Below the pieces are notes generated by a model. That model was not told the DNA's origin, did no database searches, and worked only from the letters and a program-made list of their open reading frames with translations. The position numbers and the translations under genes were made by a program. This document shows positions 4,741 through 21,111 of a stretch of DNA of 24,000 nt, piece after piece; within the stretch, counting starts at the first letter, position 1, and every line of letters starts with the position of its first letter. Source of the DNA: Dehalococcoidia bacterium (GTDB taxonomy: Bacteria > Chloroflexota > Dehalococcoidia > E44-bin15); NCBI GenBank assembly GCA_030610655.1, contig JAUWRG010000005.1, positions 1-24,000 of the forward strand. The letters run 5' to 3'.

Positions 4741-5506
4741 GTCCTTATTAAACGGGCTGGGCTCGGTGGTCATTGCCTACTCTGGAGGCGTCGACAGTAC
4801 CCTGCTTGCTTCGGTTGCCAATGAAATCCTCGGCGAGAGAGCGCTGGCGGTTACCGCTTCCTCACCCATTCACCCCACTTCTGAGACCGCTAAGGCCTGG
4901 TCTTTAGCTCGCCAACTGGGAATTCGCCATATCACAATTGAGACCAGTGAGATGGACAACCCATTGTTTGTAGCTAATGACCCACAGCGCTGTTACTACT
5001 GTAAGCGAGGACTTTTCGCGCAATTAAACCACATCGCTGACAAGGATGGCGCATCCTTCGTGATCGATGGCACAAACTACGATGACCTGCAAGACTTTCG
5101 CCCGGGGAGAAAGGCGGCTGAGGAGTTCGGGGTCATAAGTCCCCTTTCCGAGGTAGTCCTCACCAAGGCAGATATTCGCTCTATTTCCCAAAATAGGGGG
5201 ATTCCCAATTGGGATAAACCCTCCTTGCCCTGCCTAGCCACCCGCTTTCCACATGGCACCCCGATCACAGTTGAACTTTTGGCTCGTATCGCCAACGCTG
5301 AGCAATCCCTTACCAAGCTAGGGCTTTCTCAGTTTCGGGTGCGCCATCACGGCCCCATTGCCCGCATCGAGGTCAGCAATGGAGACTTGGCACTTTTTGC
5401 CGACGACAAAATGCGGCTTCTTGCAGTGGAGGAGCTCCGTGCCCTGGGCTACAGTTATGTTACTCTTGATCTTGCGGGCTACCGCCCTGGGGGAAGAGCC
5501 TCTTGA
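4715..5506 (+). CDS. larE: ATP-dependent sacrificial sulfur transferase LarE (PP-loop ATP pyrophosphatase)
   Basis: 263 aa. It carries the PP-loop YSGGVDST, an LPCLATRFPHG motif with the conserved Cys, and a VTLDLAGYR C-terminus, and it is collinear with LarE. The GTG start overlaps the radA 3' end. Confidence 0.8.
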   Translation: METKLIQLKSLLNGLGSVVIAYSGGVDSTLLASVANEILGERALAVTASSPIHPTSETAKAWSLARQLGIRHITIETSEMDNPLFVANDPQRCYYCKRGLFAQLNHIADKDGASFVIDGTNYDDLQDFRPGRKAAEEFGVISPLSEVVLTKADIRSISQNRGIPNWDKPSLPCLATRFPHGTPITVELLARIANAEQSLTKLGLSQFRVRHHGPIARIEVSNGDLALFADDKMRLLAVEELRALGYSYVTLDLAGYRPGGRAS

Positions 5507-6684
5507 AGATTGGCTATTTCGATTGTTACTCCGGATTGAGCGGCGATATGATCCTGGGCGCCATCCTGGATTGCGGGTTATCCCTTGATTTGCTTACTGC
5601 CGAGCTGGCCAAGCTCCCCTTACAGGGCTACCGAATATTGGCTCAGCCAGCGACACGCGGGATCATCACCGGAACCCAAGTAACGGTCGCTGTCGAGGAT
5701 AGTGTCAAACAGCACCGCGATCTGAAAGATATTCTTGACCTGATCGAAAAGAGCAGCCTGTCTCAGGAGACGAAACGCAAGAGCGCCCTTATCTTCAGTC
5801 GCCTCGCCGAAGCAGAGTCAAAGGTTCATCGCATTCCTGTAGACGAGGTCCATTTTCACGAGGTTGGGGCCATCGATGCCATCGTTGACATAGTAGGGGC
5901 AGTAATTGGGCTTGAGCTCTTGGGGATCGATGCCCTCTTTTCCTCTCCTCTGCCTACGGGAAGCGGCACAGTGAAAACCGAGCATGGCATCATTCCCATT
6001 CCTGCACCAGCGACCTTAGAGCTTATCGCCTCATCGGGGGCGACTGTTCGGCCTAGCGCCTCCCCTGACATGGGGGAGCTGGTTACCCCTACCGGAGCGG
6101 CCATTACTACCACCCTGGCTTCCTTTGACAGCCCGACATTTTCCCTGGAGCGCATCGGCTATGGTGTGGGAACGCGGGAGATTGAAGCTATCCCTAACGT
6201 GCTTCCTCTCTGGCTCGGGGAAAGAACTCACAAAGAGCACCCCCTAGTGCTACTTGAGACCAATATCGACGACATGAGCGCTGAGCTTTACGGCCACGTC
6301 ATGGACCGTCTGTTTACACAGGGTGCACTGGATGTTTGGTTCACCCCGATCCAGATGAAAAAGAACCGCCCGGCGGTGATGCTTAGCGTCCTTTCTCCAT
6401 CTGAAGCGGAGGGGCAGATGATGGAGACGATACTCCGTGAGACATCCACATTGGGGGTTCGAGTGCAGCGGATGGAGCGCCACGAATGTGAGCGCGATAT
6501 GATCCCGTTCGATTCCAGCCTGGGCAGGGTTATGGTGAAGGTGAAGCGTTTTCATGGTAAGCGGATTGGCCTATCGCCTGAGTTTGAGGATTGCCGTCGT
6601 CTTGCTCAGGAACATGGGCTTCCCCTCCAAGATGTTTATCGAATCGTCACCGCTGAGGCCTGCGCCCAACTTCTTAAGAAGTGA
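5503..6684 (+). CDS. larC: Nickel-pincer cofactor biosynthesis protein LarC (DUF111 nickel insertion protein)
   Basis: 393 aa. The N-terminus MKIGYFDCYSGLSGDMILGAILD is typical of LarC/DUF111. The start overlaps the larE stop (ttga). Confidence 0.82.
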   Translation: MKIGYFDCYSGLSGDMILGAILDCGLSLDLLTAELAKLPLQGYRILAQPATRGIITGTQVTVAVEDSVKQHRDLKDILDLIEKSSLSQETKRKSALIFSRLAEAESKVHRIPVDEVHFHEVGAIDAIVDIVGAVIGLELLGIDALFSSPLPTGSGTVKTEHGIIPIPAPATLELIASSGATVRPSASPDMGELVTPTGAAITTTLASFDSPTFSLERIGYGVGTREIEAIPNVLPLWLGERTHKEHPLVLLETNIDDMSAELYGHVMDRLFTQGALDVWFTPIQMKKNRPAVMLSVLSPSEAEGQMMETILRETSTLGVRVQRMERHECERDMIPFDSSLGRVMVKVKRFHGKRIGLSPEFEDCRRLAQEHGLPLQDVYRIVTAEACAQLLKK

Positions 6685-7518: not shown

Positions 7519-9111
7519 CTATGCCTTTTCGGCACTCTTCAGCAGCCAGTACTCAAGGCTATCGGCCAGCGCCAGCCAGCTCGCCTCGATAATGTTGGTG
7601 GAGCTACCCACCGTCCGCCACTCATGCTCCCCATCGCTAGATTCAATGAGCACGCGTACCCGCGATTCCGTGCCTGCCGTTTCTTCTATCACGCGAACTT
7701 TGTAGTCAACCAGCCTCACCGCTGCCAATCGAGGATAGAACACTAGAAGCGCCTTGCGTAACGCGGCATCCAGGGCATTCACTGGGCCGTTCCCCTCGGC
7801 GGCAGTGTGAATTATGTCGTTGCCCACTTTCACCTTGACTGTCGCTTCGGATAACAGCTCCTCCTCGTTCTCCAAAGTCGGAGGGCGTCGCCTCTTTTCC
7901 ACCACTACCATGAAATCGACCAGCTCAAACGGTGGACGATAATCAGGCTGAGAACGATGGATAAGCAGTTCAAAGGAGGCCTCAGCACCGTCATACTGGA
8001 AGCCACGGCTCTCCATAAATTTGACCCGTTCCAATATAGCATGTGCCTGTTCACTCTGATGGGTCAGATCTAATCCCGTCTCCCTGGCCTTCCGTATGAT
8101 AACTCCCTTGCCCGACATCTCAGATACCAATGTTCGCCATTCGTTTCCCACCGATTTGGGGTTGACATGGTGATAGCTTTCCTCCCACTTCATCATGGCA
8201 GCGATATGGAGGCCAGCCTTATGGCTGAAGGCACTGGCCCCCACGTAGGGAAGGTGGCTATCAAGGGTCAGATTAGCCACCTCGCTTACAAAATGAGCGG
8301 CTTCAGTCAGCCTGGCAAGCTGCTTGTAGGGGATACAATCAATGCCCATCTTTAGCTTCAGAGCAGGGATGACGGAGCACAGGTTGGCATTTCCACAGCG
8401 CTCCCCGTAGCCGTTAATGGTGCCTTGAACCTGAATTGCTCCCGCCTGGACCGCGGCTAAGGTGTTGGCCACGGCAAGTTCAGCATCGTTATGGGCGTGG
8501 ATACCTAGCTTGGCTTTGGTTGCCTTTCGCGCCGCCTTGACAGCGACAGTCACATCCGCCGGCAATGCCCCTCCATTTGTATCGCACAAGATGACACATT
8601 CAGCGCCCGCCTCAGCAGCAGCATTGACCGTCTTTAGAGCATATTTAGGATTCGATTTGTAGCCATCAAAGAAGTGCTCCGCATCGAAGAAGACCCTTCG
8701 CCCATTTGATATTAGATAGGCTACAGAGTCAGCGATCATGCTGATGTTTCCATCTAAAGTGGTCTCCAGAACTTCGGTTACATGATGGTCCCAACTCTTG
8801 CCTACCAGTGTTATCACACTTGCTCCAGCGTCCAACAGGGCACGAAGTGTGGGGTCTTTTTCAGCTTTTTCATCGGGCCTTCTGGTGCTGCCAAAGGCAA
8901 CGAGTACCGCTTTGGAAAGAGCCAACTCAGAGGCCCTGGCGAAAAACTCCTCGTCTTTAGGGTTTGCCCCTGGCCAGCCCCCCTCGATAAAGTGTATGCC
9001 CAACTCATCAAGCTTTCTCGCAATCTTGAGCTTGTCCTCAACGCTGAAGGATATACCCTCCCGCCCTGCTCCATCGCGTAATGTGGTGTCATAAAGCTGG
9101 ACTCGCTTCAT
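7519..9111 (-). CDS. cimA: (R)-citramalate synthase (LeuA-related family, long form)
   Basis: 530 aa. It has LYDTTLRDGAGREGISFS, HAHNDAELAVANTLAAV and a C-terminal LeuA-allosteric-like domain. It is a paralogue distinct from the leuA at 16758-18275 and is the last gene of the operon. Confidence 0.72.
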   Translation of the reverse strand: MKRVQLYDTTLRDGAGREGISFSVEDKLKIARKLDELGIHFIEGGWPGANPKDEEFFARASELALSKAVLVAFGSTRRPDEKAEKDPTLRALLDAGASVITLVGKSWDHHVTEVLETTLDGNISMIADSVAYLISNGRRVFFDAEHFFDGYKSNPKYALKTVNAAAEAGAECVILCDTNGGALPADVTVAVKAARKATKAKLGIHAHNDAELAVANTLAAVQAGAIQVQGTINGYGERCGNANLCSVIPALKLKMGIDCIPYKQLARLTEAAHFVSEVANLTLDSHLPYVGASAFSHKAGLHIAAMMKWEESYHHVNPKSVGNEWRTLVSEMSGKGVIIRKARETGLDLTHQSEQAHAILERVKFMESRGFQYDGAEASFELLIHRSQPDYRPPFELVDFMVVVEKRRRPPTLENEEELLSEATVKVKVGNDIIHTAAEGNGPVNALDAALRKALLVFYPRLAAVRLVDYKVRVIEETAGTESRVRVLIESSDGEHEWRTVGSSTNIIEASWLALADSLEYWLLKSAEKA

Positions 9112-9140: not shown

Positions 9141-10232
9141 TCAGACTATCTGCCCCGCCACTAAATCACCCATCTCTTTGGTGCCTACCTTAGTCTTGCC
9201 TTCGTCCATTATATCATAGGTGCGGTAGCCCTGTTCCAAAACGTCGCTAACCGCCTTTTCCACCGCTTCGGCTTCCTGCACCATCCCCAGTGAATAACGA
9301 AGCATCATAGCAAGTGAGAGTATGGTGGCGATTGGGTTGGCCATGTTCAGCCCTGTCCTGCTCGGGGCGCTGCCATGAATCGGCTCATACATACCAAAGG
9401 TCCGCTCGCCATCCTTAGGTATTCCCGCCAAGCTCGCCGACGGCAACATGCCCATAGAACCAGCGAGCATAGAAGCCTCATCGGTCAGGATGTCGCCGAA
9501 CATGTTCTCAGTTACGATGACATCAAGATCAGCGGGGCGCTGGATTAACCTCATAGCGCAGGCATCGACCAGCATATGTTGTAACTCTACATCGGGATAA
9601 TCTGACGATAGCTCTATAGCGATCTGCCGCCACAACCGCGATGATTCCAGCACATTGGCCTTATCCACTGATGTCAGTTTTTTGCGCCGCGTTCTGGCAA
9701 GCTCAAAGCCAACCCTAAGAATGCGCTCGACCTCCTTTTCGGAGTATACAAGGCTATCGACCGCCTTTCGGCCTGCGGCGGTCTGCCACTGCTTCTTCGG
9801 CTTACCGAAGTAAAGCCCGCCGGTAAGCTCTCGAACTACGATAAGGTCGACACCCTTAACAACAGCCGGCTTCAAGTTGGTGGAATCGACCAGCATGGGG
9901 AGCACCTTCACCGGGCGCAGGTTGGCGAAAAGCTTAAGTTGCTTTCTCAGACCGAGAAGCCCGTCTTCGGGACGTACCTTCGCCCTAGGGTCATCCCACT
10001 TAGGGCCGCCAACCGCTGCCAGGAAAACCGCATCGCTTCTCTTGCACTTGTTGAGCGTCTCTCCAGGGAGGGCTACCCCGAACTCATCTATAGCCACACC
10101 CCCGATAGGGGCATAATCCAGATGGAAAGAATGTCCAAATCTCTTACCCACTGCCTCAAGAACTTTTACCCCTTCGGCAGCGACCTCTGGGCCGACCCCA
10201 TCGCCAGGAAGCACTGCGATATTGAATCTCAC
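9141..10232 (-). CDS. leuB: 3-isopropylmalate dehydrogenase
   Basis: 363 aa. It has [42 protein letters not shown] and EPIHGSAP motifs. Confidence 0.93.
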
Positions 10233-10380: not shown

Positions 10381-10878
10381 TCAGCGCTTACCCATGAGGG
10401 CCTTCCTGGTATGCTCGACGAGCCCTCCTGCCGAGATAAGCTCCAGCATGAAATCCGGGTAGGGCTCAGCCGTATATATCTTGTCCCTGGTGATGTCCCT
10501 GATCTCGCCTTTTTCCAGTTCCACCTCAAGCTCATCGCCCTGCTCTATCTCATTGGCCTGGGCGCATTCAAGTAAAGGCAGGCCGATGTTGATGGCATTT
10601 CTGAAGAAGATGCGGGCGAAGCTCCGGGCGATGACGCACGATATGCCCACTGCCTTGATGGCGATGGGGGCGTGCTCCCGCGATGAGCCGCAGCCGAAAT
10701 TGGTGGTGGCCACTATTATGTCACCCGGCTGTACTCGGCTCAAGAACTCGCTATCGATGTCCTCCATGCAATGCGCTGCCAGTTCCTCCGGCTCAGAGAG
10801 GTTCAGATAGCGAGCCGGGATGATGACATCGGTATCCACATTGGCCCCATACTTATGAACTTTGCCTTTAAGCTTCAA
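10381..10878 (-). CDS. leuD: 3-isopropylmalate dehydratase small subunit
   Basis: 165 aa with the aconitase swivel-domain motif [15 protein letters not shown]. The start is TTG, with the RBS aaggggag. Confidence 0.9.
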
Positions 10879-10894: not shown

Positions 10895-11446
10895 TCAGAC
10901 CTCCAAGCAACCGAGATAATAGAAGCCTGGAAAATCTGCAGGAATGGTTAAGCTCTTGATATGAAGAGGAGAAAACTTCCTATTAAACCTATTAACTCCA
11001 TCTGTCCAGTCATCCATGCCACCATTTGCCGTGGTTAGAATTAAAAGGAATTTATTGCCTTCTACGATTTCGTTCAATTTTTCAACATCTGGTTTAATCC
11101 CTACCGAGCTTGGGTCCCCAAAATAGAATTGCGCATTATATTTATATCCTTTTTGATACCCTATTAGCCAATGTTTCAATTCGATCCATGCTGTTAATGC
11201 ACCGGACCCCGTTGGCACTTCAACCTTGAAATCAACCTTCCTTTTTCCCACGCCAAATGAGACTTCTCGGTCAAAGTTAGCTAAACTGCCCGCGGCTTTT
11301 TCATCGTCTAACAAGGATAGAAACTCTCCCTTCATCCAGCCTTCCACTTGCACTCCATACTTGCAAAAACAATTTAGATGTTTTTCCCTGGAGTCCAAAA
11401 CCGCTTTAAATCGAGAAACCAAGTCCAAGATAGCGTGATCGGTCAT
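10895..11446 (-). CDS. Orphan PD-(D/E)xK nuclease-fold protein of unknown family
   Basis: 183 aa. The motif order is E ([10 protein letters not shown]), D (RKVDFKVEV), ExK (AWIELKHW), which is the canonical restriction-endonuclease-like core. The gene is AT-richer than its flanks. Its stop lies 16 nt upstream of the leuD start. Confidence 0.55.
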
Positions 11447-11454
11447 TTCTCACC

Positions 11455-11512
11455 TCCCCCAGCCCCGCGAGGCGTCCCAGTATGGCGCTGGCGGCGGCCA
11501 CCAAGCTGCAAA
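11455..11512 (-). repeat. Degenerate copy 3 of the leuC 3' coding end (cassette boundary)
   Basis: On the minus strand it encodes ...[18 protein letters not shown], against the leuC C-terminus [19 protein letters not shown]. By hand alignment, 11473-11498 matches 14400-14425 at 22 of 26 nt. Confidence 0.75.
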
Positions 11513-11537
11513 GTCCTTGTGGGACAAAATGGCTTTT

Positions 11538-11741
11538 TCATTTGAGAATGACAGAGAGCGGTTTTTGTTCCTCTAATGCGCTCACCTTTAGGATGGAAAA
11601 GCCAATGATGTTTCCTTCCTCGTCAACCTTTTCCATTACCGCATCGTTTCCTGTCTCTCTAAAGTAACCTGTTTTTCGCTCAAACATGACTTCAAGATAG
11701 TCTCCTTCTTTGTCGAACCAAACCTTTATTTCCTTTCCCAT
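11538..11741 (-). CDS. DUF2283-family protein (putative antitoxin partner)
   Basis: 67 aa. VWFDKEGDYLEVMF...DEEGNIIGFSILKVS matches the YDxExDxLYI...GxIxGIEI pattern of DUF2283. It overlaps the upstream gene by 16 nt. Confidence 0.7.
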   Translation of the reverse strand: MGKEIKVWFDKEGDYLEVMFERKTGYFRETGNDAVMEKVDEEGNIIGFSILKVSALEEQKPLSVILK

Positions 11742-12040
11742 AGTATTTCGCCTCCCTTTATTGTGTCTGTAAAATACGCCGTAATAATGAACAAATCATC
11801 ATCCAATAATTTAACTACCACACATAGATATTTCTCAGCTATAAGCGTGGCACTGTAATACCGATAAAACAGTTCAACTTGCGGGTCTATTCTAGATCTA
11901 ACAATTATATCAGGATTCAATAAGGTATTCTCTATTTTATCGATCTGCCCGAACATTTCTGGATGGTCAGCCTCAATATGCTCTCGTCTTTCATTTGTTA
12001 ATCGAATTCGGCGGCCATGGATGTCTTTAAACCATTTCAT
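11726..12040 (-). CDS. Putative toxin, DUF4258-like / barnase-RelE-like small nuclease
   Basis: 104 aa. I recognise the pattern (LTNERREHIEADHPEM...NPDIIV...CVVVK...FIITAYFT). The family assignment rests mainly on the pairing with DUF2283. Confidence 0.45.
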   Translation of the reverse strand: MKWFKDIHGRRIRLTNERREHIEADHPEMFGQIDKIENTLLNPDIIVRSRIDPQVELFYRYYSATLIAEKYLCVVVKLLDDDLFIITAYFTDTIKGGEILWERK

Positions 12041-12043
12041 TTA

Positions 12044-12097
12044 TCTCTCCGCCTCCTCCTCCGGCCCCCCCCGATCCGCCCCAAGATGGCGCTGGCC
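12044..12097 (-). repeat. Degenerate copy 2 of the leuC 3' coding end (cassette boundary)
   Basis: On the minus strand it encodes (M)[17 protein letters not shown], against leu[19 protein letters not shown]. 12067-12095 matches 14391-14419 at 23 of 29 nt. The GGAGG-rich tail doubles as the RBS of the next gene. Confidence 0.75.
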
Positions 12098-12101
12098 ATA
12101 A

Positions 12102-12323
12102 CTATAACAATTTCTCGAAATCTTCTGGAGAGAGTCCTGCTTGCCTCAGGATGTTACTAAGTGTGCCAAGCGGTATTATTCTACGACCATGAAAAGGGAC
12201 AACAACTCGCCTTCCCTCCTTGATATAGGAGCGATGACCCCCTTTAGCATGTGAAAACTGAAATCCTACTCTTAATAATGCGCTCTCCATCTCCCGAGCT
12301 GCGACTCTGGGCAGCCTTTTCAT
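12102..12323 (-). CDS. hicA: HicA-family mRNA interferase toxin
   Basis: 73 aa. It shows the YcfA/HicA pattern (LLRVGFQFSHAKGGHRSYIK...VVVPFHG). An ATGA overlap couples it to the upstream hicB. Confidence 0.8.
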   Translation of the reverse strand: MKRLPRVAAREMESALLRVGFQFSHAKGGHRSYIKEGRRVVVPFHGRRIIPLGTLSNILRQAGLSPEDFEKLL

Positions 12324-12562
12324 AGAGCTATGCCCACCTTCTCTAAAGAAGGAGGCATGTCCTCAGGTATAGGCTCATTGTGAATTTTTAGGTCCTCCAA
12401 GTAGCAAAGGATAGCCTCCTTAATGTTCTCTAATGCTTCTTCCTTAGTAGCTCCATAGCTGAAACACCCAGGGAGTGCGGGAACAGAAGCATTATAATAA
12501 CCCTCGAACTCTGGATCGGTTTCCTGCTCCAAGACAACAGTATAGCTATATTCTTTGACCAT
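12320..12562 (-). CDS. hicB: HicB-family antitoxin (UPF0150, short form without a DNA-binding domain)
   Basis: 80 aa. YTVVLEQE...GYYNASVPALPGCFSYGATKEEALENIKEAI is typical of the HicB N-terminal domain. Confidence 0.8.
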   Translation of the reverse strand: MVKEYSYTVVLEQETDPEFEGYYNASVPALPGCFSYGATKEEALENIKEAILCYLEDLKIHNEPIPEDMPPSLEKVGIAL

Positions 12563-12604
12563 AACACCTCCCCTTTATATCTATATCATATATCTCCTCA
12601 TGAA

Positions 12605-12665
12605 CCACTTCCTCCGCCCCAATATTGCGCTGCCAGCGATCACCTGCTCTGTGAGGTAGACACTT
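12605..12665 (-). repeat. Degenerate copy 1 of the leuC 3' coding end (cassette boundary)
   Basis: On the minus strand it encodes SVYLTEQVIAGSAILGRRKW, against leu[22 protein letters not shown]. The 16-nt core ccccaatattgcgctg (12617-12632) is identical to 14402-14417, and aggtagac (12654-12661) equals 14442-14449, with a 3-nt indel between the two blocks. Confidence 0.75.
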
Positions 12666-12680
12666 GGTTGAGGCTGTCCT

Positions 12681-14282
12681 TCAGGACTTAAAAACGTCTC
12701 TGATTCTGCGATTCAGACCACCACCAATCTTCTCAATGGCTTCACACCTAATTCGGGTAAGTTCTTTCTGTTTCTCCTCAAATTCGGCTGTCGAATAGAG
12801 CTTCTCTGGATGCATGTAGACTTCATCCACCGTCCTAATTGCCTTGGGCACTTTGAAGCCGGTAGGCGAATCCACCCAATCCTCGAGACCCCCTCTCAAC
12901 AAAGAGTCCAATATCCCCATCGTATGTTCTAACCTTATATCCTTGTATTGAGCCTCTTCACCCACGCCTCCTGTATTGAGTAGGTAGTATTTCACATGAG
13001 GAAGGCCCCTCAAGATTTCAATAAACCTGTTGGCGTGCTGTGCTTTATTGCCAGCTATAAATGGATCATAGAAAAACTCGCTCCTTATCCTCCCTGCCTG
13101 GGTTGGGTCACCCGCTGACGACTCCACTGCCTGTCCCAGAACCATCAAGGCTGCTGCTTGACTGCGAGTCAACTTAGATATCGCTGGGATCAATGGCCCT
13201 CTGGTTATGAGGATGAGGTTATCAATCCGATCAACATCGATGTACGGGCTGGCATGCAGGAAATCCCTTCGCCGTATGGTCGCTCTCCCATTCGACGTCC
13301 TGGTGAAGTTATAGAAATCGTAGTCACCGTCGTCGGTGACAAAAACGTTTTCGCACAGCGTATCTGGTTTCAACAAACCGTAGAACACCGCGGTTTGCTC
13401 TCCTGGATTCACGCCCTCTGTTTTCGCATAGATCCCTCCCAACTCAAAGCCGTGGAAAGAACCATCTGGCATGAGCGCTCCACCATCGTCCTGAATAAGC
13501 CAGGACCTTTCCCTTTCCTTCTTTGCCATGATGCGACAGGTTGTGGTTGTCTTGCCGTTGGCGCTCAACGCGACAAGCAGCGTTCTGACAGTTCGATAGT
13601 CGCCGTGGACTGATTGAAGGTAGTCCTCCCTACAACCGGCATGCAAGAAGATCCCACCTCTCCTGGTTTTGACGTTCCAATCCTCCGCTGCGAAAACCCC
13701 CTTCTTGTATTCACCTACGTAGTTACTGTTCCTGACGATCTTGATCACCCTTCCATCGTCCAGCATTGCCAATCTTATGGTGATATCCTTTTGGGAAAGC
13801 GGCTTTGCCCGGTTGGCTTCAAAGGCCTCGTCGGTGAAGAATATGATCTGATATATTGGTGACTTGACTTTCCTATTCACTGGCAGATAAAGATTCCCGC
13901 CACCGTAGGCGAGATGAGCAAATCTCACTGGAACAATCATTCTAACCACTGTTTCACTGCTTTCGTTGCCCACGATCCTATCAACGGAAATCAACTTCTC
14001 CCTGGCAAGCGCCTTTTCACACCGGGAAAGCAGTCGCCTTCCCTCCTCGCCGAAAGTATGGTCAACGCTGTTCTTGGTAAACATCGCCGCTCTCGATGTG
14101 GGCTCGCTTTCAGCAGCAAAATTGCCATATATCGTCTTTCTGATACCAGGCTCGATCTCCGTCAATGTCCTAAGCTCCGCATCAGAGGGATTGTCGACTA
14201 ACCTGTTCTCTTCTATAGCCTTTTTCCTGATTCTATCAACAGTTCTGGCGTATTCTTCTAGGTCAAACCCGTTTGGCATCAC
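12681..14282 (-). CDS. Divergent ATP-dependent phosphoenolpyruvate carboxykinase-family protein
   Basis: 533 aa, collinear with PckA motifs: GEYKKG (GEMKKG in PckA), FLHAGC (MHCSAN), ALSANGKTTTT (GLSGTGKTTLS), LIQDDGG (LIGDDEHGW), FELGGIYAKT (FNFEGGCYAKT), NGRATI (NTRVSY), LLNTGGVG (LVNTGWNG). The likely start is the ATG at 14279, one codon inside the GTG at 14282. Confidence 0.65.
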   Translation of the reverse strand: MMPNGFDLEEYARTVDRIRKKAIEENRLVDNPSDAELRTLTEIEPGIRKTIYGNFAAESEPTSRAAMFTKNSVDHTFGEEGRRLLSRCEKALAREKLISVDRIVGNESSETVVRMIVPVRFAHLAYGGGNLYLPVNRKVKSPIYQIIFFTDEAFEANRAKPLSQKDITIRLAMLDDGRVIKIVRNSNYVGEYKKGVFAAEDWNVKTRRGGIFLHAGCREDYLQSVHGDYRTVRTLLVALSANGKTTTTCRIMAKKERERSWLIQDDGGALMPDGSFHGFELGGIYAKTEGVNPGEQTAVFYGLLKPDTLCENVFVTDDGDYDFYNFTRTSNGRATIRRRDFLHASPYIDVDRIDNLILITRGPLIPAISKLTRSQAAALMVLGQAVESSAGDPTQAGRIRSEFFYDPFIAGNKAQHANRFIEILRGLPHVKYYLLNTGGVGEEAQYKDIRLEHTMGILDSLLRGGLEDWVDSPTGFKVPKAIRTVDEVYMHPEKLYSTAEFEEKQKELTRIRCEAIEKIGGGLNRRIRDVFKS

Positions 14283-14362
14283 AGCCTCCCCTTTCTCTCC
14301 ATTCCCCCACAGAGTTCCTTAAGCAGTGGCATATCAAATCTTCCCTGCACGACGCAATACTT

Positions 14363-15634
14363 TCAACCCTCACGTACTACTCCTTCTGGACTACCAATCC
14401 TCCCCAATATTGCGCTGGCGGCGGCAACTGCTGGATTTGCCAGGTAGACTTCTGACTGAGGACTGCCCATGCGGCCAACGAAGTTGCGGTTGGTGGTTGA
14501 GATGCATCTTTCACCCGCTGCGAGGACCCCCATATGTCCACCGAGGCAGGGACCACAAGTGGGCGTGCTCACCGCTGCCCCCGCCCGGATGAAGGTTTCG
14601 ATCAGGCCGCGGCGCATAGCCTCCAGATACACCTCTTGAGAGCCAGGGATGATGATCAAGCGCACCTCAGGGTGAACCTTTCTCCATTTAAGCACCTCGG
14701 CGGCCATCTCCAGGTCCTCGATGCGGCCGTTGGTGCAACTGCCGATCACCACCTGGTCGATCTTCACCTCACCAACCTCGGTTATGGGCCTGGTATTCGA
14801 TGGCAGGTGGGGAAAGGCAACCTGAGGCTCGATCTTGGAGACATCATATTCGATGACTTTTTCATAATAGGCATCTTCATCGGGTTCGTACACCGTGTAG
14901 GGACGCCCGGCACGAGCCTGAATATAAGCCAATGTCTTCTTATCGACCCTAAAGATGCCTGCCTTGGCGCCAGCCTCGATAGCCATGTTTGCCATAGTGA
15001 AGCGACTACTCATAGGCAGAGACTCGATGGCCTCTCCGCAAAGCTCCATTGCGGCATACAGTGCTCCGTCGACGCCGATGTCGCCGATAGTATAAAGAAT
15101 AAGGTCTTTGCCGCTGACCCACTTTTTCGTCCTGCCGTGATAGATGAACTTGATAGTAGGAGGAACTTTCATCCAAGTCTCGCCTGTTGCCATGGCGCAG
15201 GCGATATCGGTCGAGCCCATTCCTGTGGCGAAGGCTCCCAGAGCGCCATAGGTGCAGGTATGGGAATCAGCAGCCACGACCACATCGCCAGGTAACACCA
15301 GCCCCTGCTCCGGCAGAAGCACATGCTCGATGCCGCCTCTACCTACCTCAAAGTAGACCAATCCCTGCTCCCTGGCGAACTCCTTCATCATCTTCGCCTG
15401 CTCCGCTGAGGGGATGTCCTTATTAGGGACAAAATGATCGGCGACCATCACCACCCTCTGGGGGTCAAAGACTTCAGAGACACCGATACGCTCAAACTCG
15501 TTGATGGCGATGGGGGCGGTAACATCATTTGCCATAACGAGGTCAACCCTGACATTTAGGAACTCGCCAGGGCTGACCTTCTTTTTCCCACAATGAGCAG
15601 CAAGTATCTTCTCAGCTATCGTTGATCCTGTCAC
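14363..15634 (-). CDS. leuC: 3-isopropylmalate dehydratase large subunit
   Basis: 423 aa of the aconitase family ([30 protein letters not shown]). The GTG start overlaps the mgtC stop (gtga). The C-terminus is ...[20 protein letters not shown]. Confidence 0.92.
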
Positions 15635-16038
15635 TCTCCTCCTATCTTCCTGGGAAGCCTGAGCACGATCAGCACAATCAGAGTAGCCACTGGAGCCAAG
15701 ATATACAGGCCTGCGCCAGCAACAAGCCCTATGGCGGCAACCGCCCAGACGCTGGAAGCGGATGTCAAACCGACCACGATTCCCTCCTGTGTCCGTATGA
15801 TCATCCCCGCGCCCAAGAACCCAACACCCACGACTATCCCTGCAGCTATTCGTGCCGGGTCAGCCCCCTCACCGAAGCCGTACATTGAGGCGATGGTGAA
15901 CAGGGCGGCGCCGATACAGATCAGCACATGGGTGCGAAGCCCAGCCGGCTTCCTTGCATGCTGTCGCTCAAACCCTATGAGCGTCCCCAGTGCCACCGCC
16001 AGTAAAAGGCGCAGCACCATCTCTAATTCAGGGGACAA
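15631..16038 (-). CDS. MgtC/SapB-family membrane protein (membrane domain only)
   Basis: 135 aa. [37 protein letters not shown] is the MgtC family signature, and there are 4-5 hydrophobic segments. The start is TTG with the RBS ggaggtga. Confidence 0.8.
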
Positions 16039-16061
16039 GAATCACCTCCTATCCATGTCGG

Positions 16062-16460
16062 CTAGGCTATGGCCTTCTTGAGTTTCCTCAAGTTCCTCAG
16101 GTGTTCATCCTTGTGGCCCGGTTCAAGGAAGGTTAGCTTCTCGCAGGACTCGAACTCATCGCACTGGGCGCAGCTTTCATAGCCCCGTTTCCGGGCGCAG
16201 GTCCTGATTTTGCACCAAGGGTTGCCACCACCCTCGCGGCATCCCTTGCATCTGAGGCTAGCAAGGGCATCAAGGCTCCTCTTAAAAGAGTCATAGTCTC
16301 CCAGGAAGGGAATCGAGGGCCATACCTGCTTTATTTTCTCGGCCCGCATCGTCCGCCGCAACCCCTTGGCCGCCTCGCTTATCGTCTTGGTGTACCCAAA
16401 GCACTGGCTGCAATCAAGGCCGCAATAGGCCATAACGCTACCGGTTTTTATTTCCGCCAT
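16062..16460 (-). CDS. DUF3795-family cysteine-rich protein
   Basis: 132 aa with YCGLDCSQC near the N-terminus plus CKGC, WCKIRTC and CAQC clusters, which matches the DUF3795 pattern. Confidence 0.6.
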   Translation of the reverse strand: MAEIKTGSVMAYCGLDCSQCFGYTKTISEAAKGLRRTMRAEKIKQVWPSIPFLGDYDSFKRSLDALASLRCKGCREGGGNPWCKIRTCARKRGYESCAQCDEFESCEKLTFLEPGHKDEHLRNLRKLKKAIA

Positions 16461-16757: not shown

Positions 16758-18275
16758 CTACTCTTTGCCTTTCGCCGCCAAGAGCCGGTTGAGGGCGTTC
16801 ATATAGGCTTTGGCGCTGGCGACCAGGATGTCAGTGGATGCACCCCGACCAATGTAGGTTCGGCCCTCGCTCTCGATCTTTATGGTCACCTCGCCGATGG
16901 CATCGATACCCTCGGTAATCGATTTGACGCTGAACTCAGTGAGTGTATTGGGCACCTGCACCAAGCGGTTGATCGCTTTGTAGACGGCGTCCACTGGTCC
17001 CGCTCCCAGGGCGGCATCAGCGATAACCTGCCCATCGGGAGCAACGAGCTTGACCGTGGCCGTAGACACGGTGTGATCGCCACAGGAAACCTGCACCTGC
17101 TCCAGGTGGTAGGTCTCCGACACGGTGCGCAACTCCTCGGCAACTAGGGCCTCCAAGTCAGGATCGGTGACTTCCTTCTTCTTATCGGCCAGCTCCTTGA
17201 AAGCGGCGAAGGCGCGGGCAAAATCCTCTTCGCTAAGAGTGCAACCCAGTTCCTCCAGTTTCTGGCGAAATGCATGACGCCCCGAGGTCTTCCCTAATAC
17301 GATCCTGCTTTCGCCGACCCCGATGCTCTTAGGAGTCATAATTTCGTAGGTGGTTCTCTCCTTGAGCATACCATCTTGGTGCAAGCCCGAAGCATGAGCG
17401 AAGGCATTGGCCCCCACAATCGCCTTATTGGGCGGCACCTCCATGCCCATATAGTGGCTCACCAGTCGACTAGTCCTATAGATCTGGGCGGTGTCAACCT
17501 TGGTAGCCAGGTGGAAGAAATCGCTACGGGTTTTGAGAGCCATCACGATCTCTTCTAGGGCAGCATTGCCGGCTCGCTCACCCACACCGTTGATAGTGCA
17601 TTCCACCTGGCGCGCTCCGCACTGGATAGCACGCAGCGAATTGGCCACCGCCTGACCCAGATCATCGTGGCAGTGTACAGATAGGGTGACCTTCTCAATC
17701 CCGGGCACATTGTTGCGTACATACTCAATTAAGGCACCGAATTCGTCGGGTTGGACATAGCCCACGGTGTCGGGAATATTAACCACGGTGGCTCCGGCTT
17801 CTATCGTCGCCGCCAGCACCTGGCAAAGGTAATCCCAGTCGCTGCGAGTAGCATCCATCGCTGAGAACTCGACCGCACTACAATAACGCTTAGCATACCT
17901 CACCGCCTCAACAGCTAACTCGAGTGCCTGTTCACGGCTGATGTGCAACTGGTGTTCGAGGTGAATATCGGAGGTGGACAGGACAACATGGAGAAGGGGA
18001 GCCTCTGCCTCCTTTAGTGCATTCCATGTTGAGTCGATCTGCTCCTGCTTTATGCCGGAGAGCGCCGCAATCTGGCAGTCCCGCAGTTCCCGCGCCAGAA
18101 GCTGCACCGCAGCAAAGTCCCCCGGTGAGGTGTGGGGAAAACCAGCCTCGATGATATCCACCCCCAACCTCTGGAGCTGATGACCGATCTCGTGCTTCTC
18201 TTCAAGGGTCAATGCTCCCCCAGCAGCCTGCTCTCCGTCTCTCAGTGTGGTGTCGAAGATAATCACACGTTCCAT
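16758..18275 (-). CDS. leuA: 2-isopropylmalate synthase
   Basis: 505 aa. It has IFDTTLRDGEQ, HCHDDLGQAVANSLRAI and a C-terminal LeuA regulatory domain. Confidence 0.9.
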   Translation of the reverse strand: MERVIIFDTTLRDGEQAAGGALTLEEKHEIGHQLQRLGVDIIEAGFPHTSPGDFAAVQLLARELRDCQIAALSGIKQEQIDSTWNALKEAEAPLLHVVLSTSDIHLEHQLHISREQALELAVEAVRYAKRYCSAVEFSAMDATRSDWDYLCQVLAATIEAGATVVNIPDTVGYVQPDEFGALIEYVRNNVPGIEKVTLSVHCHDDLGQAVANSLRAIQCGARQVECTINGVGERAGNAALEEIVMALKTRSDFFHLATKVDTAQIYRTSRLVSHYMGMEVPPNKAIVGANAFAHASGLHQDGMLKERTTYEIMTPKSIGVGESRIVLGKTSGRHAFRQKLEELGCTLSEEDFARAFAAFKELADKKKEVTDPDLEALVAEELRTVSETYHLEQVQVSCGDHTVSTATVKLVAPDGQVIADAALGAGPVDAVYKAINRLVQVPNTLTEFSVKSITEGIDAIGEVTIKIESEGRTYIGRGASTDILVASAKAYMNALNRLLAAKGKE

Positions 18276-18667
18276 TTTTCGCCCTCCTGGCGGTCGGGTG
18301 TTGCCCCCTCAATAAGACTAAGGAGCTCACCCACTGCTTTCCTTATGTCCTCGGCGTAAATGTTAATCTCCTCCATACTCAGTCCAGCCTCATAGAAGTT
18401 ACTACGTAAATAACTGGCATGTCCATAGGCATCGAAGATGCTTTTGTTTCCAAGCTCCTTTGCTAGCTCTTTGGCAAATTCTGTAATTTCCCAGTGCGCT
18501 GCAAGCTTTATACCTCTGCTCGCAGCCACTGCTTTCAACGCCTCAGCCATGCTTCCCCAGAGGAACTCTCCTGCCTTCTCAGGGTCGCCTGCTTCTACGT
18601 AATTGAAGGCATTATCCAGATAGTGAATGCTTTGGGCTTTATACTTCTCAGCGCTCTCGTTTGTCAC
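18263..18667 (-). CDS. PaREP1-like (HEPN-superfamily-like) helical protein
   Basis: 134 aa. AEKYKAQSIHYLDNAFNYVEAGDPEKAGEFLWGSMAEALKAVAASRGIKLAAHWEI matches the PaREP1 pattern (EKxWGAxAxAxKAxAxxxGxxLxSH) and contains R-x6-H. An ATGA overlap couples it to the upstream 76-aa ORF. Its last 13 nt overlap the leuA start. Confidence 0.5.
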   Translation of the reverse strand: MTNESAEKYKAQSIHYLDNAFNYVEAGDPEKAGEFLWGSMAEALKAVAASRGIKLAAHWEITEFAKELAKELGNKSIFDAYGHASYLRSNFYEAGLSMEEINIYAEDIRKAVGELLSLIEGATPDRQEGEKWNV

Positions 18668-18894
18668 CGTGTTACATACTCCAAAATGGCCTCTGTGTTT
18701 GCGTCTATTTTTACTTGGGCTATCTTAGTTTCGAACAATCCGACATCGATTTCCACGAGCCAAACATCACCCTCCCTGACAACCTTAATCGGCCTCAAAG
18801 TGAAAAGTGTCGGAGAGAAATACTTGCAAAGATAGGACCGAGCTATCTCGGTAGCTTCTTCGGCGGATTTTACTTCTGCTGGCATATTTCCCAC
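18664..18894 (-). CDS. Small hypothetical protein, partner of the PaREP1-like gene
   Basis: 76 aa from the GTG at 18894. The ATG at 18885 (MPAEVK..., 73 aa) is better placed behind the RBS aggagg. I recognised no family. Confidence 0.5.
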   Translation of the reverse strand: MGNMPAEVKSAEEATEIARSYLCKYFSPTLFTLRPIKVVREGDVWLVEIDVGLFETKIAQVKIDANTEAILEYVTR

Positions 18895-18915
18895 CTCCTA
18901 TTAAAGCATTCTACT

Positions 18916-18958
18916 TCAAGCCTTCAGCCAGGGCATCATCTCCCTGAGCCCTTTGCCC
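18916..18958 (-). repeat. Relic copy of the ilvC 3' coding end
   Basis: On the minus strand it encodes [13 protein letters not shown]-stop, against the ilvC end [13 protein letters not shown]-stop. 18916-18958 aligns with 19233-19275 at a constant offset of 317 nt and 36 of 43 identities. This includes an identical 24-nt core (18926-18949 = 19243-19266) and aligned stop codons. Confidence 0.8.
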
Positions 18959-18972: not shown

Positions 18973-19236
18973 TCAGTGTCTTCCATATTTAAGCTTTGCG
19001 TATAGAAGCATGGCGACAAAGGTCGCCCCCACCGCATTCCACAGGATGACAGGGAACAACTGGAATACTATCCCACAGCCTAACCAGCAAAGCACACCAG
19101 TAAGGAGTAAAAGGGTAAATGGCAGGCTTATCTCACGGGCGCTCTTAAGCCTGAATAGCTTGACCACCTGTGGCACATAGGCCACTGTCACCAATGCTCC
19201 TCCGATAAAGCCAAAGCGAATACCCTTCCTCATCAC
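18973..19236 (-). CDS. SemiSWEET / PQ-loop family small transporter
   Basis: 87 aa with three hydrophobic helices and the PQ-loop motif [18 protein letters not shown]. The start is GTG at 19236 or ATG at 19233, and either overlaps the ilvC stop (gtgatg). Confidence 0.72.
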
Positions 19237-20225
19237 TTCTTGAGCCAGGGCATCATCTCCCTGAGCTTCTTGCCCACCTCCTCAATCTCATGCGCCGCTT
19301 CTCTTCGCCGGTAGGCGTTGAAGCTGGGGCGGCCCGCCTGGTTCTCCAGAATCCACTCACGGGCGAAGGTGCCGTCCTGAATCTCTGACAGGATCTGCTC
19401 CATCTCTTCCCTCACAAACGCATCAATGACCCTCGGCCCCCTGGAGTAATCACCGTATTCCGCAGTATCGCTCACCGAATAGCGCATATAGGCAAAACCA
19501 CCCTGGTATATGAGGTCAACGATGAGCTTTAGCTCATGGCACACCTCGAAATAGGCGATCTCAGGCTGATACCCAGCCTCTACCAGGGTTTCAAAAGCCG
19601 TCTTTATCAGGGAAGTGATGCCGCCGCAGAGCACCACCTGCTCCCCGAAGAGGTCAGTCTCGGTCTCCTCCTCGAAGGTAGTCTCCAGAACTCCTGCTCT
19701 GGTGCAGCCGATACCCTTTGCATAGGCCAGGGCCTTTTCCTTAGCCTTGCCCGAAGCGTCCTGATGCACGGCGACAAGCGCCGGAGCGCAAGAGCCCTCG
19801 GTATAAAGTTGGCGCAGCATATGGCCAGGGCACTTAGGCGCTATCATGGTCACATCAATATCAGGCGGTGGCAGTATCTGATTGTAGTGGATGTTGAATC
19901 CGTGAGCAAACATCAGCATATTACCCTTAGTGAGCCCCTTCTCAATAGAGCTATAGTATACCTGGCGGTGGAGCTGGTCTGGGACAAGCATCACGATAAC
20001 ATCGGAGGCCTTCGCCACCTCATCGGCGGTCATCACCTTAAGCCCAGCCTCGACGGCTGCCGCCCAGGGCTCGCTACCCTCAAGCTCGCCAACCATGACC
20101 TGGCAGCCGCTCTCCTTCAGGTTCAAGGCATGGGCATGCCCCTGGCTACCGAAGCCGATTATGCCGATGGTCTTGCCCTCGAGTAAACTTATGTCCACGT
20201 CACTATCATAATAGATCTTAGCCAT
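19233..20225 (-). CDS. ilvC: Ketol-acid reductoisomerase (class I)
   Basis: 330 aa with the Rossmann motif [19 protein letters not shown] and collinear KARI motifs ([20 protein letters not shown]). Confidence 0.95.
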
Positions 20226-20240
20226 AGCTCTCTCCTTCGA

Positions 20241-20915
20241 TTATTTGCCGATTTTCCCTTTTGCCAACAAGGCTTCTGGGTTATAAAGGTCTTTATTGCC
20301 CGCATTAAACTCGTGCTTGACCTGCACAAGGAGCTTATCAAGAGTGTATATCTCCCAAGCTAGGGGAACAAATGCCATCCCCCCTTTTCTAATTTCTTGG
20401 GCAAGTTGAAAGCTCACTACAAGATGATAAGCATTAGCTGTTATTTTAGGATCGAGGGAAGGGGAGAAATAGAAACTTCTGAAAGTTGTTTCTTTTACCT
20501 CTATATTATAAGTTTTGCAATCTAGATATACTATTCGCCCCTCATCGTCAATTTTGATGTCTGGATAGCCTACTGCCTTTCTCTTTCCGTTTTTTGTTTC
20601 GGGTTTCTCTGCCCTTAATCCAACTTCATTAAGAGCCTCGATAACAAAGGGCTCTATGCGGTTCCCCGCTTCGTTTGGCCTCCTTGCAAATATACCCTCT
20701 ATGTATGCGCTCTCACCAGCTATTTGTGCAGCCCTTATGAGTTTCTTAAGAAGCTCTTCAGTCTCTGGCGCTTCTTTATCAAAAGCAATGACTTCATAGC
20801 CTGTTAGCGCCTTTATTGCAATTGGGAATGGTATGCCTTTTATTGGCTCGAGAAACTTAGCAATTGTTGTCTCTAGGCTCTTGATGTAGTCTTCATTTTC
20901 CACTTTCGTAGCCAC
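20241..20915 (-). CDS. Type II restriction endonuclease candidate (PD-(D/E)xK)
   Basis: 224 aa. GYPDIKIDDEGRIVYLDCKTY gives PD...D-x-K with normal spacing. It is the last gene of an AT-rich three-gene unit with a DNA methyltransferase. The start is GTG and overlaps the 72-aa ORF by 23 nt. Confidence 0.65.
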   Translation of the reverse strand: MATKVENEDYIKSLETTIAKFLEPIKGIPFPIAIKALTGYEVIAFDKEAPETEELLKKLIRAAQIAGESAYIEGIFARRPNEAGNRIEPFVIEALNEVGLRAEKPETKNGKRKAVGYPDIKIDDEGRIVYLDCKTYNIEVKETTFRSFYFSPSLDPKITANAYHLVVSFQLAQEIRKGGMAFVPLAWEIYTLDKLLVQVKHEFNAGNKDLYNPEALLAKGKIGK

Positions 20916-21111
20916 CCTTGGTCAACTTTTCAATAAGGCCATTTATAGCATCTTCGCTCTCCCGAATTAGAGAACTCAAAAGGCTACATCGCTCGGATAT
21001 GTCTTTAGGAAGATATTTGTCTGGGAAAGTTTGAAGCAGTTCGCCAGTCTCTAGGTCACATAGGTTTACCCAACCATCTTCAACTCTCAGTATATGACCT
21101 TCTAATTTCAT
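20893..21111 (-). CDS. Small hypothetical protein bridging the methyltransferase and endonuclease genes
   Basis: 72 aa. It fills the gap between the M and R genes and overlaps both (32 nt and 23 nt). I saw no recognisable HTH, so it is not an obvious C-protein. Confidence 0.45.
   Translation of the reverse strand: MKLEGHILRVEDGWVNLCDLETGELLQTFPDKYLPKDISERCSLLSSLIRESEDAINGLIEKLTKGGYESGK

Follow-up and report, generated by a model that had tools for sequence, protein, structure and literature searches.

The window analyzed here, the first 24,000 nucleotides of contig JAUWRG010000005.1, carries on its minus strand the ilv-leu operon of an uncultured Dehalococcoidales bacterium, whose LeuC has its closest genome match at 93% identity. 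Six co-oriented genes lie between leuC and leuD in this operon, and interspersed with them are three degenerate copies of the 3' end of leuC, which we refer to as relics 1 to 3. The full order is leuC, a PEPCK-like gene, relic 1, hicBA, relic 2, PBECR2-DUF2283, relic 3, a nuclease-like gene and leuD, and the individual features are as follows.

14363-15634, minus strand: leuC, 3-isopropylmalate dehydratase large subunit, intact (Pfam Aconitase, 5.8e-107)
14363-14460, minus strand: final ~100 nt of leuC, used as the reference for the repeat, with its core at 14403-14417
12681-14282, minus strand: cassette 1, PEPCK-like gene, 533 aa (Pfam PEPCK_ATP, 9e-39)
12594-12677, minus strand: relic 1, leuC 3' end of the window's own clade (score 23, P<0.001)
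12320-12562, minus strand: cassette 2, hicB antitoxin (Pfam HicB_lk_antitox, 8.8e-11)
12102-12323, minus strand: cassette 2, hicA toxin (Pfam HicA_toxin, 2.9e-16)
12041-12100, minus strand: relic 2, complete leuC 3' end of foreign type (score 18, P=0.001)
11726-12040, minus strand: cassette 3, PBECR2/DUF4258-like putative toxin, 104 aa (PBECR2 at 28.2 bits, cutoff 27.1; DUF4258, 2.7e-4)
11538-11741, minus strand: cassette 3, DUF2283 putative antitoxin partner (Pfam DUF2283, 4e-6)
11447-11503, minus strand: relic 3, leuC 3' end of foreign type (score 20, P<0.001; profile match at E = 4e-5)
10895-11446, minus strand: leuD-proximal gene, an open reading frame (ORF) of 183 aa, probable PD-(D/E)xK nuclease, with no Pfam family
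10381-10878, minus strand: leuD, small subunit (Pfam Aconitase_C)

Small gene modules, promoterless and co-oriented and for the most part selfish, have accumulated at the leuC-leuD junction, which is a hotspot of accretion. The units measure 0.5-1.7 kb, and the GC content of the hicBA-to-nuclease part is 37-47% vs 52-60% in the flanks. Contigs from other samples that carry the same LeuC have the array base for base, two of them spanning all of it and two only its leuC-proximal end, and the finding of an identical array in independent assemblies rules out an assembly artefact. Judged by its domains, hicBA is predicted to be type II toxin-antitoxin (TA) cargo, consisting of two small adjacent genes with a 4-nt overlap, one of which encodes the predicted toxin. 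The PEPCK-like gene scored 366 bits against NCBIfam NF006821, below the cutoff of 369, and neither PADLOC nor NCBIfam provided names for the small cassettes.

The PBECR2-like proteins form a family of exactly 104 residues with 70-99% identity across very distant bacteria and archaea, the carriers of which include Edwardsbacteria, ANME-1, Bathyarchaeota, Methanoperedens and Asgard-related genomes. Every time that we encountered the family in three further loci (L176, L178, and L180; L numbers denote the loci used for comparison), the DUF2283 gene was paired with it. Since both length and identity are kept across such distant hosts, the two-gene module has evidently undergone intense horizontal spread.

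To assess the relics, the last 98 nt of leuC were aligned locally with the 3.5-kb leuC-leuD gap, and 1000 Markov-simulated gaps served as the null. There were three outlier matches, all on the same strand as leuC, with scores of 23 (12594-12672), 20 (11476-11501) and 18 (12071-12096) and respective P values of 0, 0, and 0.001; the null maximum score had a mean of 11.1, a standard deviation of 1.3 and a largest value of 19, and the fourth real match, with a score of 12, was at null level. The leuC-end family was also the top direct-repeat family in an unsupervised repeat search. A 15-nt core, CAGCGCNATNNTGGG, is present in four copies in the 24 kb, all on the minus strand, where 100 shuffles gave an expectation of 0; in all four copies it corresponds to the conserved SAILG codons, and between leuC and relic 1 a core of 16 nt is identical. 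A profile hidden Markov model (HMM) of 150+ LeuC C-termini, run against the translated frames, identified relic 3 (E = 4e-5) and relic 2 (E = 0.02), and relic 1 weakly (E = 3.7). A chance origin of the relics is ruled out by the shuffling statistics.

Each relic is situated at a cassette boundary: relic 1 right after the PEPCK stop codon, the start of relic 2 at 5 nt past the hicA stop codon, and that of relic 3 at ~35 nt past the DUF2283 stop codon. The relics are ~57-95 nt in length and differ in where they start, the left end being anywhere between -33 and -95 nt before the stop codon. A preliminary description of this DNA, made from its sequence, had reported three further same-strand copies of the leuC end at the boundaries of the inserts and a minus-strand layout of four tandem cassettes. 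The three copies (P<=0.001 each), their similarity to leuC far above that of shuffled sequence (four cores vs none expected) and the layout are all borne out by our analyses, as is the modular nature of the units; however, the four repeat copies bound only three cassettes, as the 16 nt that separate the 183-aa ORF from leuD hold no relic.

Relic 1 comprises ~85-95 nt. It extends from the SPQSEVYL region as far as an EEVVHEE tail and, in the four-way alignment, has lost 13 nt by deletion. When compared to the leuC ends of 160 loci that we fetched from genomes and metagenomes, it was most similar to the window's own leuC, followed by that of L005. Relic 2 had been read as GGAGGGGGE but is in fact a complete leuC end, in which a frameshift at eight G residues is followed by PEEEAER and a TAA stop codon that abuts the ATG of the PBECR2 gene. 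All of the codons in which it differs from leuC (5/5) are synonymous, and of all the leuC ends that of L086, a member of clade A in the LeuC tree, fits it best (30 vs 18 for the window's own leuC). The 8-G run (12061-12072) is located just upstream of the PBECR2 start and could be prone to slippage. Relic 3 differs from leuC by five synonymous and two conservative codon changes, is most similar to the leuC ends of L124, L095, and L085 (34-30 vs 20 for the window's own leuC), and ends at the ATG of the 183-aa ORF, a site equivalent to the overlap of the leuC stop and the start of the next gene in L176. The former PEEV codons of relics 2 and 3 provide the gene that follows with its Shine-Dalgarno sequence, and the relics may therefore act as translation initiation regions.

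Relic 1 and a relic in L176 are own-type copies whose differences are decay-like, being mostly nonsynonymous, while those of relics 2 and 3 and of the relics in L088 and L182 are mainly synonymous. Because relics 2 and 3 fit the leuC ends of other lineages better than that of the window, they are expected to be either imported or fossils of older alleles. Neutral decay in situ cannot alone account for the relics, given the 10 synonymous vs two conservative changes of relics 2 and 3 and their better fit to other lineages.

As a rule, leuC and leuD are immediate neighbors in other phyla, with a median gap of 13 nt. A gap of >200 nt was found in 18 of 35 Dehalococcoidia-like loci vs 17 of 93 loci of other phyla, and in five Dehalococcoidia-like loci (L010, L014, L095, L097, and L104) the two genes abut or overlap, representing empty sites. 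Between these states is a nested series. The sister genome, L005, has leuC, PEPCK and relic 1 in common with the window, but the two cease to be homologous within relic 1, at ~12612, and become so again 5 nt ahead of leuD; in between, L005 has a single, unrelated ORF of 137 aa. L176 has the order leuC, PBECR2-DUF2283, a 61-nt leuC relic, ORF187, and leuD; its relic is 87% identical (z=27), reads LNPAVAPASAIQGRIGGPEGVVS up to a TGA stop codon that overlaps the next ATG, and the homology between the window and L176 is confined to the two cassette genes. L182 and L183 have leuC, hicBA, a relic and an ORF, with the junction between the hicA stop and the relic being the same in L182 and the window even though the downstream neighbors differ. 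In L184, deletion of a segment like that from hicA to relic 2 in the window has joined hicB to the PBECR2 leader, and L185 and L186 have hicB behind leuC; altogether, hicB homologs with 82-91% identity immediately follow leuC in L182-L186. In L008, a homolog of the 183-aa ORF is situated between leuC and leuD. A degenerate DNA pattern search of all loci added no relics to those found with the HMM. At the level of the whole operon, L005 and the window differ in gene presence or absence at every junction.

What the preliminary description had expected of related genomes was borne out in every comparison. Empty sites and presence/absence differences do exist (leuC and leuD abut in five loci, and cassette sets differ among the others), and the same cassettes occur with leuC-end repeats at other leuC loci, PBECR2-DUF2283 in L176 and hicBA in L182. 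It had named three outcomes that would speak against the cassettes, namely an invariant array in all relatives, relics no closer to leuC than shuffled sequence, and cassettes never flanked by leuC-like repeats elsewhere; all three were checked and none was observed.

The cassettes have moved horizontally, as they are considerably less diverged at synonymous sites (dS) than the leu genes on either side. In the comparison of the window with L176, dS was 0.57 and 0.56 for the two cassette genes vs 1.3-3.0 for leuA, leuB, leuC, and leuD. Cassette dS values overall were 0.56-0.99, and hicBA showed the same trend in comparisons to L182 and L184. Synonymous third positions were identical at 105 of 144 sites (73%) in the L176 cassettes vs 376 of 697 (54%) in the flanks (Fisher p=3e-5), with composition alone accounting for ~0.26-0.3, and the corresponding comparison for L182 gave p=0.004. 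In the LeuC tree the window belongs to clade B together with L005 and L085, both of which are without hicBA and PBECR2, and all other carriers belong to clade A, the clade in which L086 also falls.

The PEPCK-like gene has a different history: its dS relative to L005 (0.34) is equal to that of leuC, which indicates that it has been inherited vertically since the ancestor of the window and L005. This equality, which extends to the flanks, is in keeping with an array that is ancient and purely vertical, its present diversity being due to differential loss by deletion between direct repeats with no horizontal movement of cassettes. Such an origin could also account for the junctions common to diverged lineages (hicA/relic in L182 and the window; the hicB-PBECR2 order in L184 and the window) and for L184 being a deletion derivative. 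Nevertheless, we consider it very improbable, as cassette dS is significantly, 2- to 4-fold, below flank dS, the carriers are not monophyletic in the LeuC tree, with the closest relatives L005 and L085 lacking the cassettes, the GC content of the cassettes is foreign, and the 5' end of leuD is mosaic. Purely vertical inheritance was accordingly rejected on the basis of dS, the LeuC tree and GC content.

The leuD mosaic became apparent in the alignment of the window with L005 (10381-10878 vs 11538-12032), in which the first ~150 nt are 77-83% identical and nt 180-350 reach 95-100%, the latter exceeding the locus average of 88-90%. This pattern suggests recombination tracts between the window and L005 lineages. 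At the other end of the block, the EEVVH tail of relic 1 fits the tail before hicB in L186 and L184 better than the window's own EGVVREG. The break in relic 1, together with the diverged 5' end of leuD, indicates that the hicBA-to-nuclease block entered the lineage by recombination. Hence not all of the array was built beside leuC; this block appears to have been imported as a unit. Two mapped breakpoints lie within ~10 nt 3' of the 15-nt core.

Scars of the same type are present at ilvC, upstream in the same operon:

19226-19275, minus strand: ilvC 3' end, the reference copy of a second repeat (repeat search)
18973-19236, minus strand: SemiSWEET/PQ-loop gene, 87 aa, at the ilvC stop codon (Pfam PQ-loop, 2.9e-9; NCBIfam SemiSWEET_2)
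18909-18958, minus strand: ilvC 3'-end relic, 50 nt, 80% identity, z=15.3, with frame and stop position kept

The pre-insertion state is preserved in L090, in which an intact ilvC end is followed directly by the hyp76-PaREP1 genes, and L088 has SemiSWEET plus a decayed ilvC relic. Other cargo is associated with similar scars, since leuC-end relics abut leuD after an insert related to IS200 and to repetitive extragenic palindromic (REP) elements (REP-associated tyrosine transposase, RAYT) in L088 and after an OYE-like gene in L107; both of these relics are without the SAILG core. From the ilvC relic and the unrelated cargo and genes elsewhere (L088, L107, L153, and the Hadesarchaea locus described below), we consider the mechanism to be generic rather than targeted to leuC, and specificity for leuC is ruled out by the ilvC relic and by the relics with other cargo and genes.

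Two of these loci have further features. In L088 the inserted gene (9318-9950) encodes an IS200-like Y1 transposase, RAYT-like, in the leuC tail and is flanked by perfect 54-nt repeats (9262-9315 / 9931-9984) that hold the palindrome GTCAGGTCCCTGACCTGAC; leuC now ends inside the repeat, and its native end, GRIASPEEIMR and stop, still abuts leuD. In L153, which is from another phylum, the C-terminal codons of a gene, CGEFCAMKISSEALHKNS and stop, are repeated in frame as FRAMKISSEALKKN and stop past an inserted gene of 409 aa (478-528 / 1863-1913).

The Pfam scan of the window ORFs supported the earlier statement that no recombinase is encoded in the 24 kb, and no recombinase genes were found in any cassette or in the annotated neighborhoods of related loci; the sole mobility gene was outside the window, the IS200-like Y1 transposase in the L088 cargo. 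The boundaries had no attC-like inverted repeats, no GTTRRRY ends and no Rfam match, and the Pfam matches of the window ORFs and neighbors gave no intI with an adjacent attI and Pc promoter. Integron attC sites are ruled out by these results (no inverted repeats, no Rfam match, no intI), and the earlier suggestion of an integron-like system is not upheld, as there is no recombinase, attC-like structure or Rfam match. Likewise, Xer/dif sites (IMEX or pdif modules) are ruled out, as the boundary sequences are direct repeats that stem from leuC and do not show the 11-6-11 symmetry of such sites. Dyad symmetry is not conserved in the core, with the palindrome CAATATTG of the leuC core being lost in relics 2 and 3, and we detected no terminal sequences common to the cassettes. 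Counts of candidate promoters and terminators at the boundaries were equal to the shuffled expectation. A scan of viral contigs for the leuC core returned one coincidental match inside a phage structural gene and no attP-like leuC fragment, and a scan for the PBECR2 protein returned nothing, ruling out phage or satellite carriage. Heavy decay of four integrative elements, also suggested earlier, is unlikely because several lineages carry these same minimal modules of two genes with no integrase remnant.

A tyrosine or serine recombinase could nonetheless act in trans, encoded elsewhere or on a helper, taking the leuC 3' core as attB and integrating and excising cassettes that have no recombinase of their own. 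Several observations would be expected if this were so: the repeated use of one site, with the same cassettes following leuC in several lineages; the presence of n+1 repeats around n flanked cassettes; the left part of a relic traveling with the upstream cassette, as at the hicA/relic junction that is common to L182 and the window and has different neighbors; the L005 homology break just 3' of the shared core; and the 16-nt core that is identical in leuC and relic 1. Accretion beside the target gene is, moreover, known behavior of such elements (PMC5704250). We nevertheless rate this explanation as rather unlikely. In addition to the failure to find such an enzyme in the 24 kb, the cassettes and the annotated neighborhoods of related loci, and the absence of a conserved dyad in the core, the relics have left ends spread over -33 to -95 nt and the L088 and L107 relics have no SAILG core at all. 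The same scar architecture is found at ilvC and at unrelated genes with unrelated cargo, the cassettes have no common termini (window-L176 homology comprises two genes only), and the viral-contig scans gave neither an attP-like leuC fragment nor a cassette.

A broader version of this idea, to which we assign a lower probability still, is that the housekeeping operons of Dehalococcoidia, and perhaps of other anaerobes, host a gene-capture system in which a host or helper recombinase uses the conserved codons before the stop as attachment sites and stacks recombinase-less cassettes of one or two genes. If this were true, the cassettes would be expressed by operon read-through and by translational coupling from the displaced gene ends, and the system would be a functional integron analog without attC or intI.

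The 183-aa ORF differs from the other units. Its AlphaFold2 model is confident (pLDDT 94), and the top Foldseek match of the model was the restriction enzyme R.SwaI (E 1.7e-3, probability 0.98), although the match is weak (TM 0.33); further matches to Cas4 and SPARDA nucleases were all of low TM. Among 48 homologs, D72 and K91 are invariant and E89 is nearly so. Based on these conserved residues, the confident model and the weak restriction-enzyme fold matches, the protein is probably a PD-(D/E)xK nuclease, with no Pfam, PADLOC or NCBIfam assignment. The family is widespread in bacteria and archaea. In the Hadesarchaea locus L165 (and also L166), the homolog is flanked by 110-nt direct repeats (3847-3956 / 4570-4679) that are 84% identical and represent an unrelated sequence, the 5' end of a gene on the opposite strand, with coding kept in both copies (MSFKRLILTPGDFLARKFDKG, MNVKHLILTPGDFLARRFDEG). 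In L167 and L169, nuclease homologs are in unrelated contexts without repeats. That the nuclease-like gene is a leuC-linked element is ruled out, as its homologs are found in archaea and bacteria in unrelated contexts. Another type of cassette-like array is present in L172, in which ~170-nt repeats (1-143, 1999-2170, 4020-4185, and 5466-5637), 95-100% identical and strongly structured (DNA fold z=-8), separate small gene groups that include a nuclease-like homolog and a RelB/ParE pair.

A nuclease of this type raises the prospect of homing, by analogy with mobile ORFs that duplicate the C-termini of mitochondrial genes: PD-(D/E)xK-type genes beside leuD would cut empty junctions, and repair would copy the occupied allele, including a cleavage-resistant surrogate leuC end. 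A probable PD-(D/E)xK nuclease does occupy the leuD-proximal position in both the window and L008, and nuclease-like or unassigned small ORFs occupy it in L005, L012, L176, and L186, although only that of L012 has a weak UPF0102 match. The dispersal of the family over bacteria and archaea, the L165 flanking repeats, which differ from one another but keep their coding, and the mainly synonymous differences of the surrogate ends are also what homing would predict. However, the nuclease-like gene is the sole unit without a relic on its leuD side, and the units that relics do bound (PEPCK, hicBA, PBECR2-DUF2283, and SemiSWEET) encode no DNA endonuclease. With homologs in L167 and L169 that are not accompanied by repeats, no Pfam, PADLOC or NCBIfam assignment, and a fold match that is weak (TM 0.33), homing seems to us improbable.

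The explanation toward which we lean, by a small measure, is that the primary events were recombinase-independent insertions with long target duplication that spanned the stop codon. Insertions of this type have been catalogued since 2000, their mechanism being unexplained (Nobusato et al., 2000; Furuta et al., 2010; PMC2853133), and are characterized by a variable duplication of >30 bp, the absence of mobility genes, and a location that is often over a start or stop codon and sometimes inside an operon (PMC2853133). The loci described here share most of these properties. Their flanking direct repeats are >30 bp and variable (~57-95 nt in the window, 61 nt and 87% identical in L176, 50 nt and 80% at ilvC, and 110 nt and 84% in L165), the repeat is single-copy at the empty site of relatives (leuC-leuD; ilvC in L090), there is no transposase, integrase or other mobility gene in or beside the window inserts, and the repeat spans the stop codon of a target gene that survives within an operon-like cluster. 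The published cargo consists of selfish genes, including a solitary nuclease (mcrA), and the cargo here is likewise selfish.

Under long target duplication, each insertion across the last 50-100 bp of leuC would duplicate that stretch, so that one copy keeps leuC intact and the other is pushed downstream, where its PEEV-coding tail (GGAGG) and stop/start overlap would form the ribosome-binding context of the next gene; repeated rounds of insertion would build the whole array. We conclude that later spread and stacking, following the primary duplications, were homology-guided. Modules would be exchanged between Dehalococcoidia lineages with the SAILGR-coding core of leuC or of the relics as homology on one side and leuD on the other, either through a double crossover or through circles that are excised between relics and integrate in the Campbell manner, in both cases by host recombination. 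For the hicBA-to-nuclease block, the leuC end of a donor from another clade would have paired with the resident relic 1, with a second crossover in the first ~150 nt of leuD. As the core comprises the most conserved nucleotides before the variable tail, it is the last place in which diverged leuC alleles could cross over. The data show repeated insertion across the leuC stop region with duplication of 50-100 nt, relics that are used again as junctions, and horizontal exchange of the cassettes; from these we infer that no dedicated recombinase is involved. The preliminary description had proposed serial site-specific insertion into the leuC 3' end, of which the serial element, with the older end displaced each time, is retained, while there is no sign of a dedicated leuC-specific recombinase.

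Several points weigh against this explanation. The recombinase search covered the window and related loci, and an enzyme encoded elsewhere could act in trans, which, as noted, we regard as rather unlikely. The repeated use of one 60-100-nt site by the same cassettes in different lineages is the pattern of a targeted system, and homologies of 50-90 bp that are 80-88% identical are poor substrates for RecA-type recombination. The published cases of long target duplication have near-identical repeats, as expected of in-situ copies, and restriction-modification (RM) cargo, whereas relics 2 and 3 are derived from other leuC alleles and differ mainly synonymously, and the cargo of the window consists of TA-like modules, a nuclease-like gene, a transporter and a PEPCK-like metabolic enzyme and not RM systems. 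No polymorphism was seen within the species, as those of its contigs that span the whole array carry it unchanged. Lastly, the role of the relics in translation initiation is read from their sequence. Also unlike the published cases are the stacking of inserts three deep at one site, its repetition at ilvC in the same operon, and the apparent re-use of relics as recombination arms and, to judge from their sequence, ribosome-binding regions.

There are parallels in other systems. Integrative elements commonly target the 3' ends of housekeeping genes and undergo tandem accretion, giving rise to cis-mobilizable elements (CIMEs; PMC5704250), and a protein-coding target is therefore not unusual, contrary to what was initially supposed. 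As in this type of accretion, the repeats in the window hold the 3' end of a protein-coding target, the target remains intact with the newest element beside it, and recombinase-less units are flanked by att-like copies in n+1 number. Other examples are the SCC and pseudo-SCC arrays at the rlmH 3' end and SGI1 at trmE. Those systems rely on a recombinase of the tyrosine or serine type, which can be identified and has a short fixed core; no recombinase was found in the window or related loci. Their units are kilobases to tens of kilobases in length and are decayed integrative conjugative or mobilizable elements, in contrast to the 0.5-1.7 kb units, varying repeat extents and scars at other genes seen here. 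Integron arrays, including those without an integrase (CALINs), resemble the leuC-leuD array in having small, promoterless, co-oriented units of one or two genes, frequent TA cargo, an upstream promoter and no recombinase in the cassettes; however, attC, intI, and attI are all absent here and the boundaries are relics of the coding end of a host gene.

Surrogate 3' ends are provided by phage 21 and e14 in Escherichia coli icd and by the mobile endonuclease ORFs that duplicate the C-termini of mitochondrial atp6 and cox genes. The leuC inserts are similar in that they supply a replacement end with mainly synonymous differences and the displaced native end stays downstream as a pseudo-end. Those elements are solitary and come with an integrase or homing endonuclease of their own, whereas the leuC units are stacked and most encode neither enzyme. 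What is new at this locus is the three-deep stacking at one stop codon with a second site in the operon, the non-RM cargo, the relics of foreign alleles, and the likely exaptation of relics as ribosome-binding regions and recombination arms.

The locus provides a natural ordered series, with three nested events at one stop codon, a fourth at a neighboring gene, and before and after states kept in relatives, which makes the mechanism of long target duplication directly addressable. The range of the cargo, from TA pairs to a metabolic enzyme, argues that the host and not the cargo does the joining. Displaced gene ends would be recycled both as ribosome-binding regions and as homology arms for the shuttling of cassettes between lineages whose core genes are synonymously saturated, and a housekeeping operon can thereby become a landing pad for mobile genes. 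The ilv-leu operon junctions are major sites of strain-level gene flux in uncultured Dehalococcoidia, and operon-based metabolic reconstruction or comparison of metagenome-assembled genomes in this group should allow for it.

Additional genes are located at other junctions of the operon. A type II RM system lies between ilvN and ilvC (20237-22371), consisting of an N6/N4 methyltransferase (21080-22366), a 72-aa ORF and an MjaV-like ORF (20241-20915). This system is absent from L005, and its junctions share only a duplicated 6-nt AAGGAG, the ilvC Shine-Dalgarno. In L005, a related methyltransferase and a 276-aa ORF are situated between leuB and cimA (13299-15568). DUF3795 and MgtC genes are embedded between leuA and leuC in the window (15631-16460). 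Neither the ilvN-ilvC nor the leuA-leuC junction had 3'-end repeats (z = 0.2-0.3). A 76-aa ORF and a PaREP1 (HEPN-like) gene, with which no relic of their own was detected, are located between the ilvC relic and leuA (18263-18894).

Repeats of other kinds were also noted. An exact 18-nt repeat, TTGATGGCGATGGGGGCG, is present in leuD (10655-10672) and leuC (15501-15518), coding for APIAI in both, and is probably a coincidence of two aconitase-family motifs. In L006, dispersed repeats occur between operon genes (3866-3970, 4572-4677, 7891-7983, 12592-12718, and 13912-14035), and palindromic elements of ~45-160 nt with the motif GTCATTGCGAG...CTCGCAATGAC are present in L014 (55-99/458-502), L099, L137, and L186 (3100-3380). 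The dispersed palindromic elements between operon genes look like miniature inverted-repeat transposable elements or REP elements.

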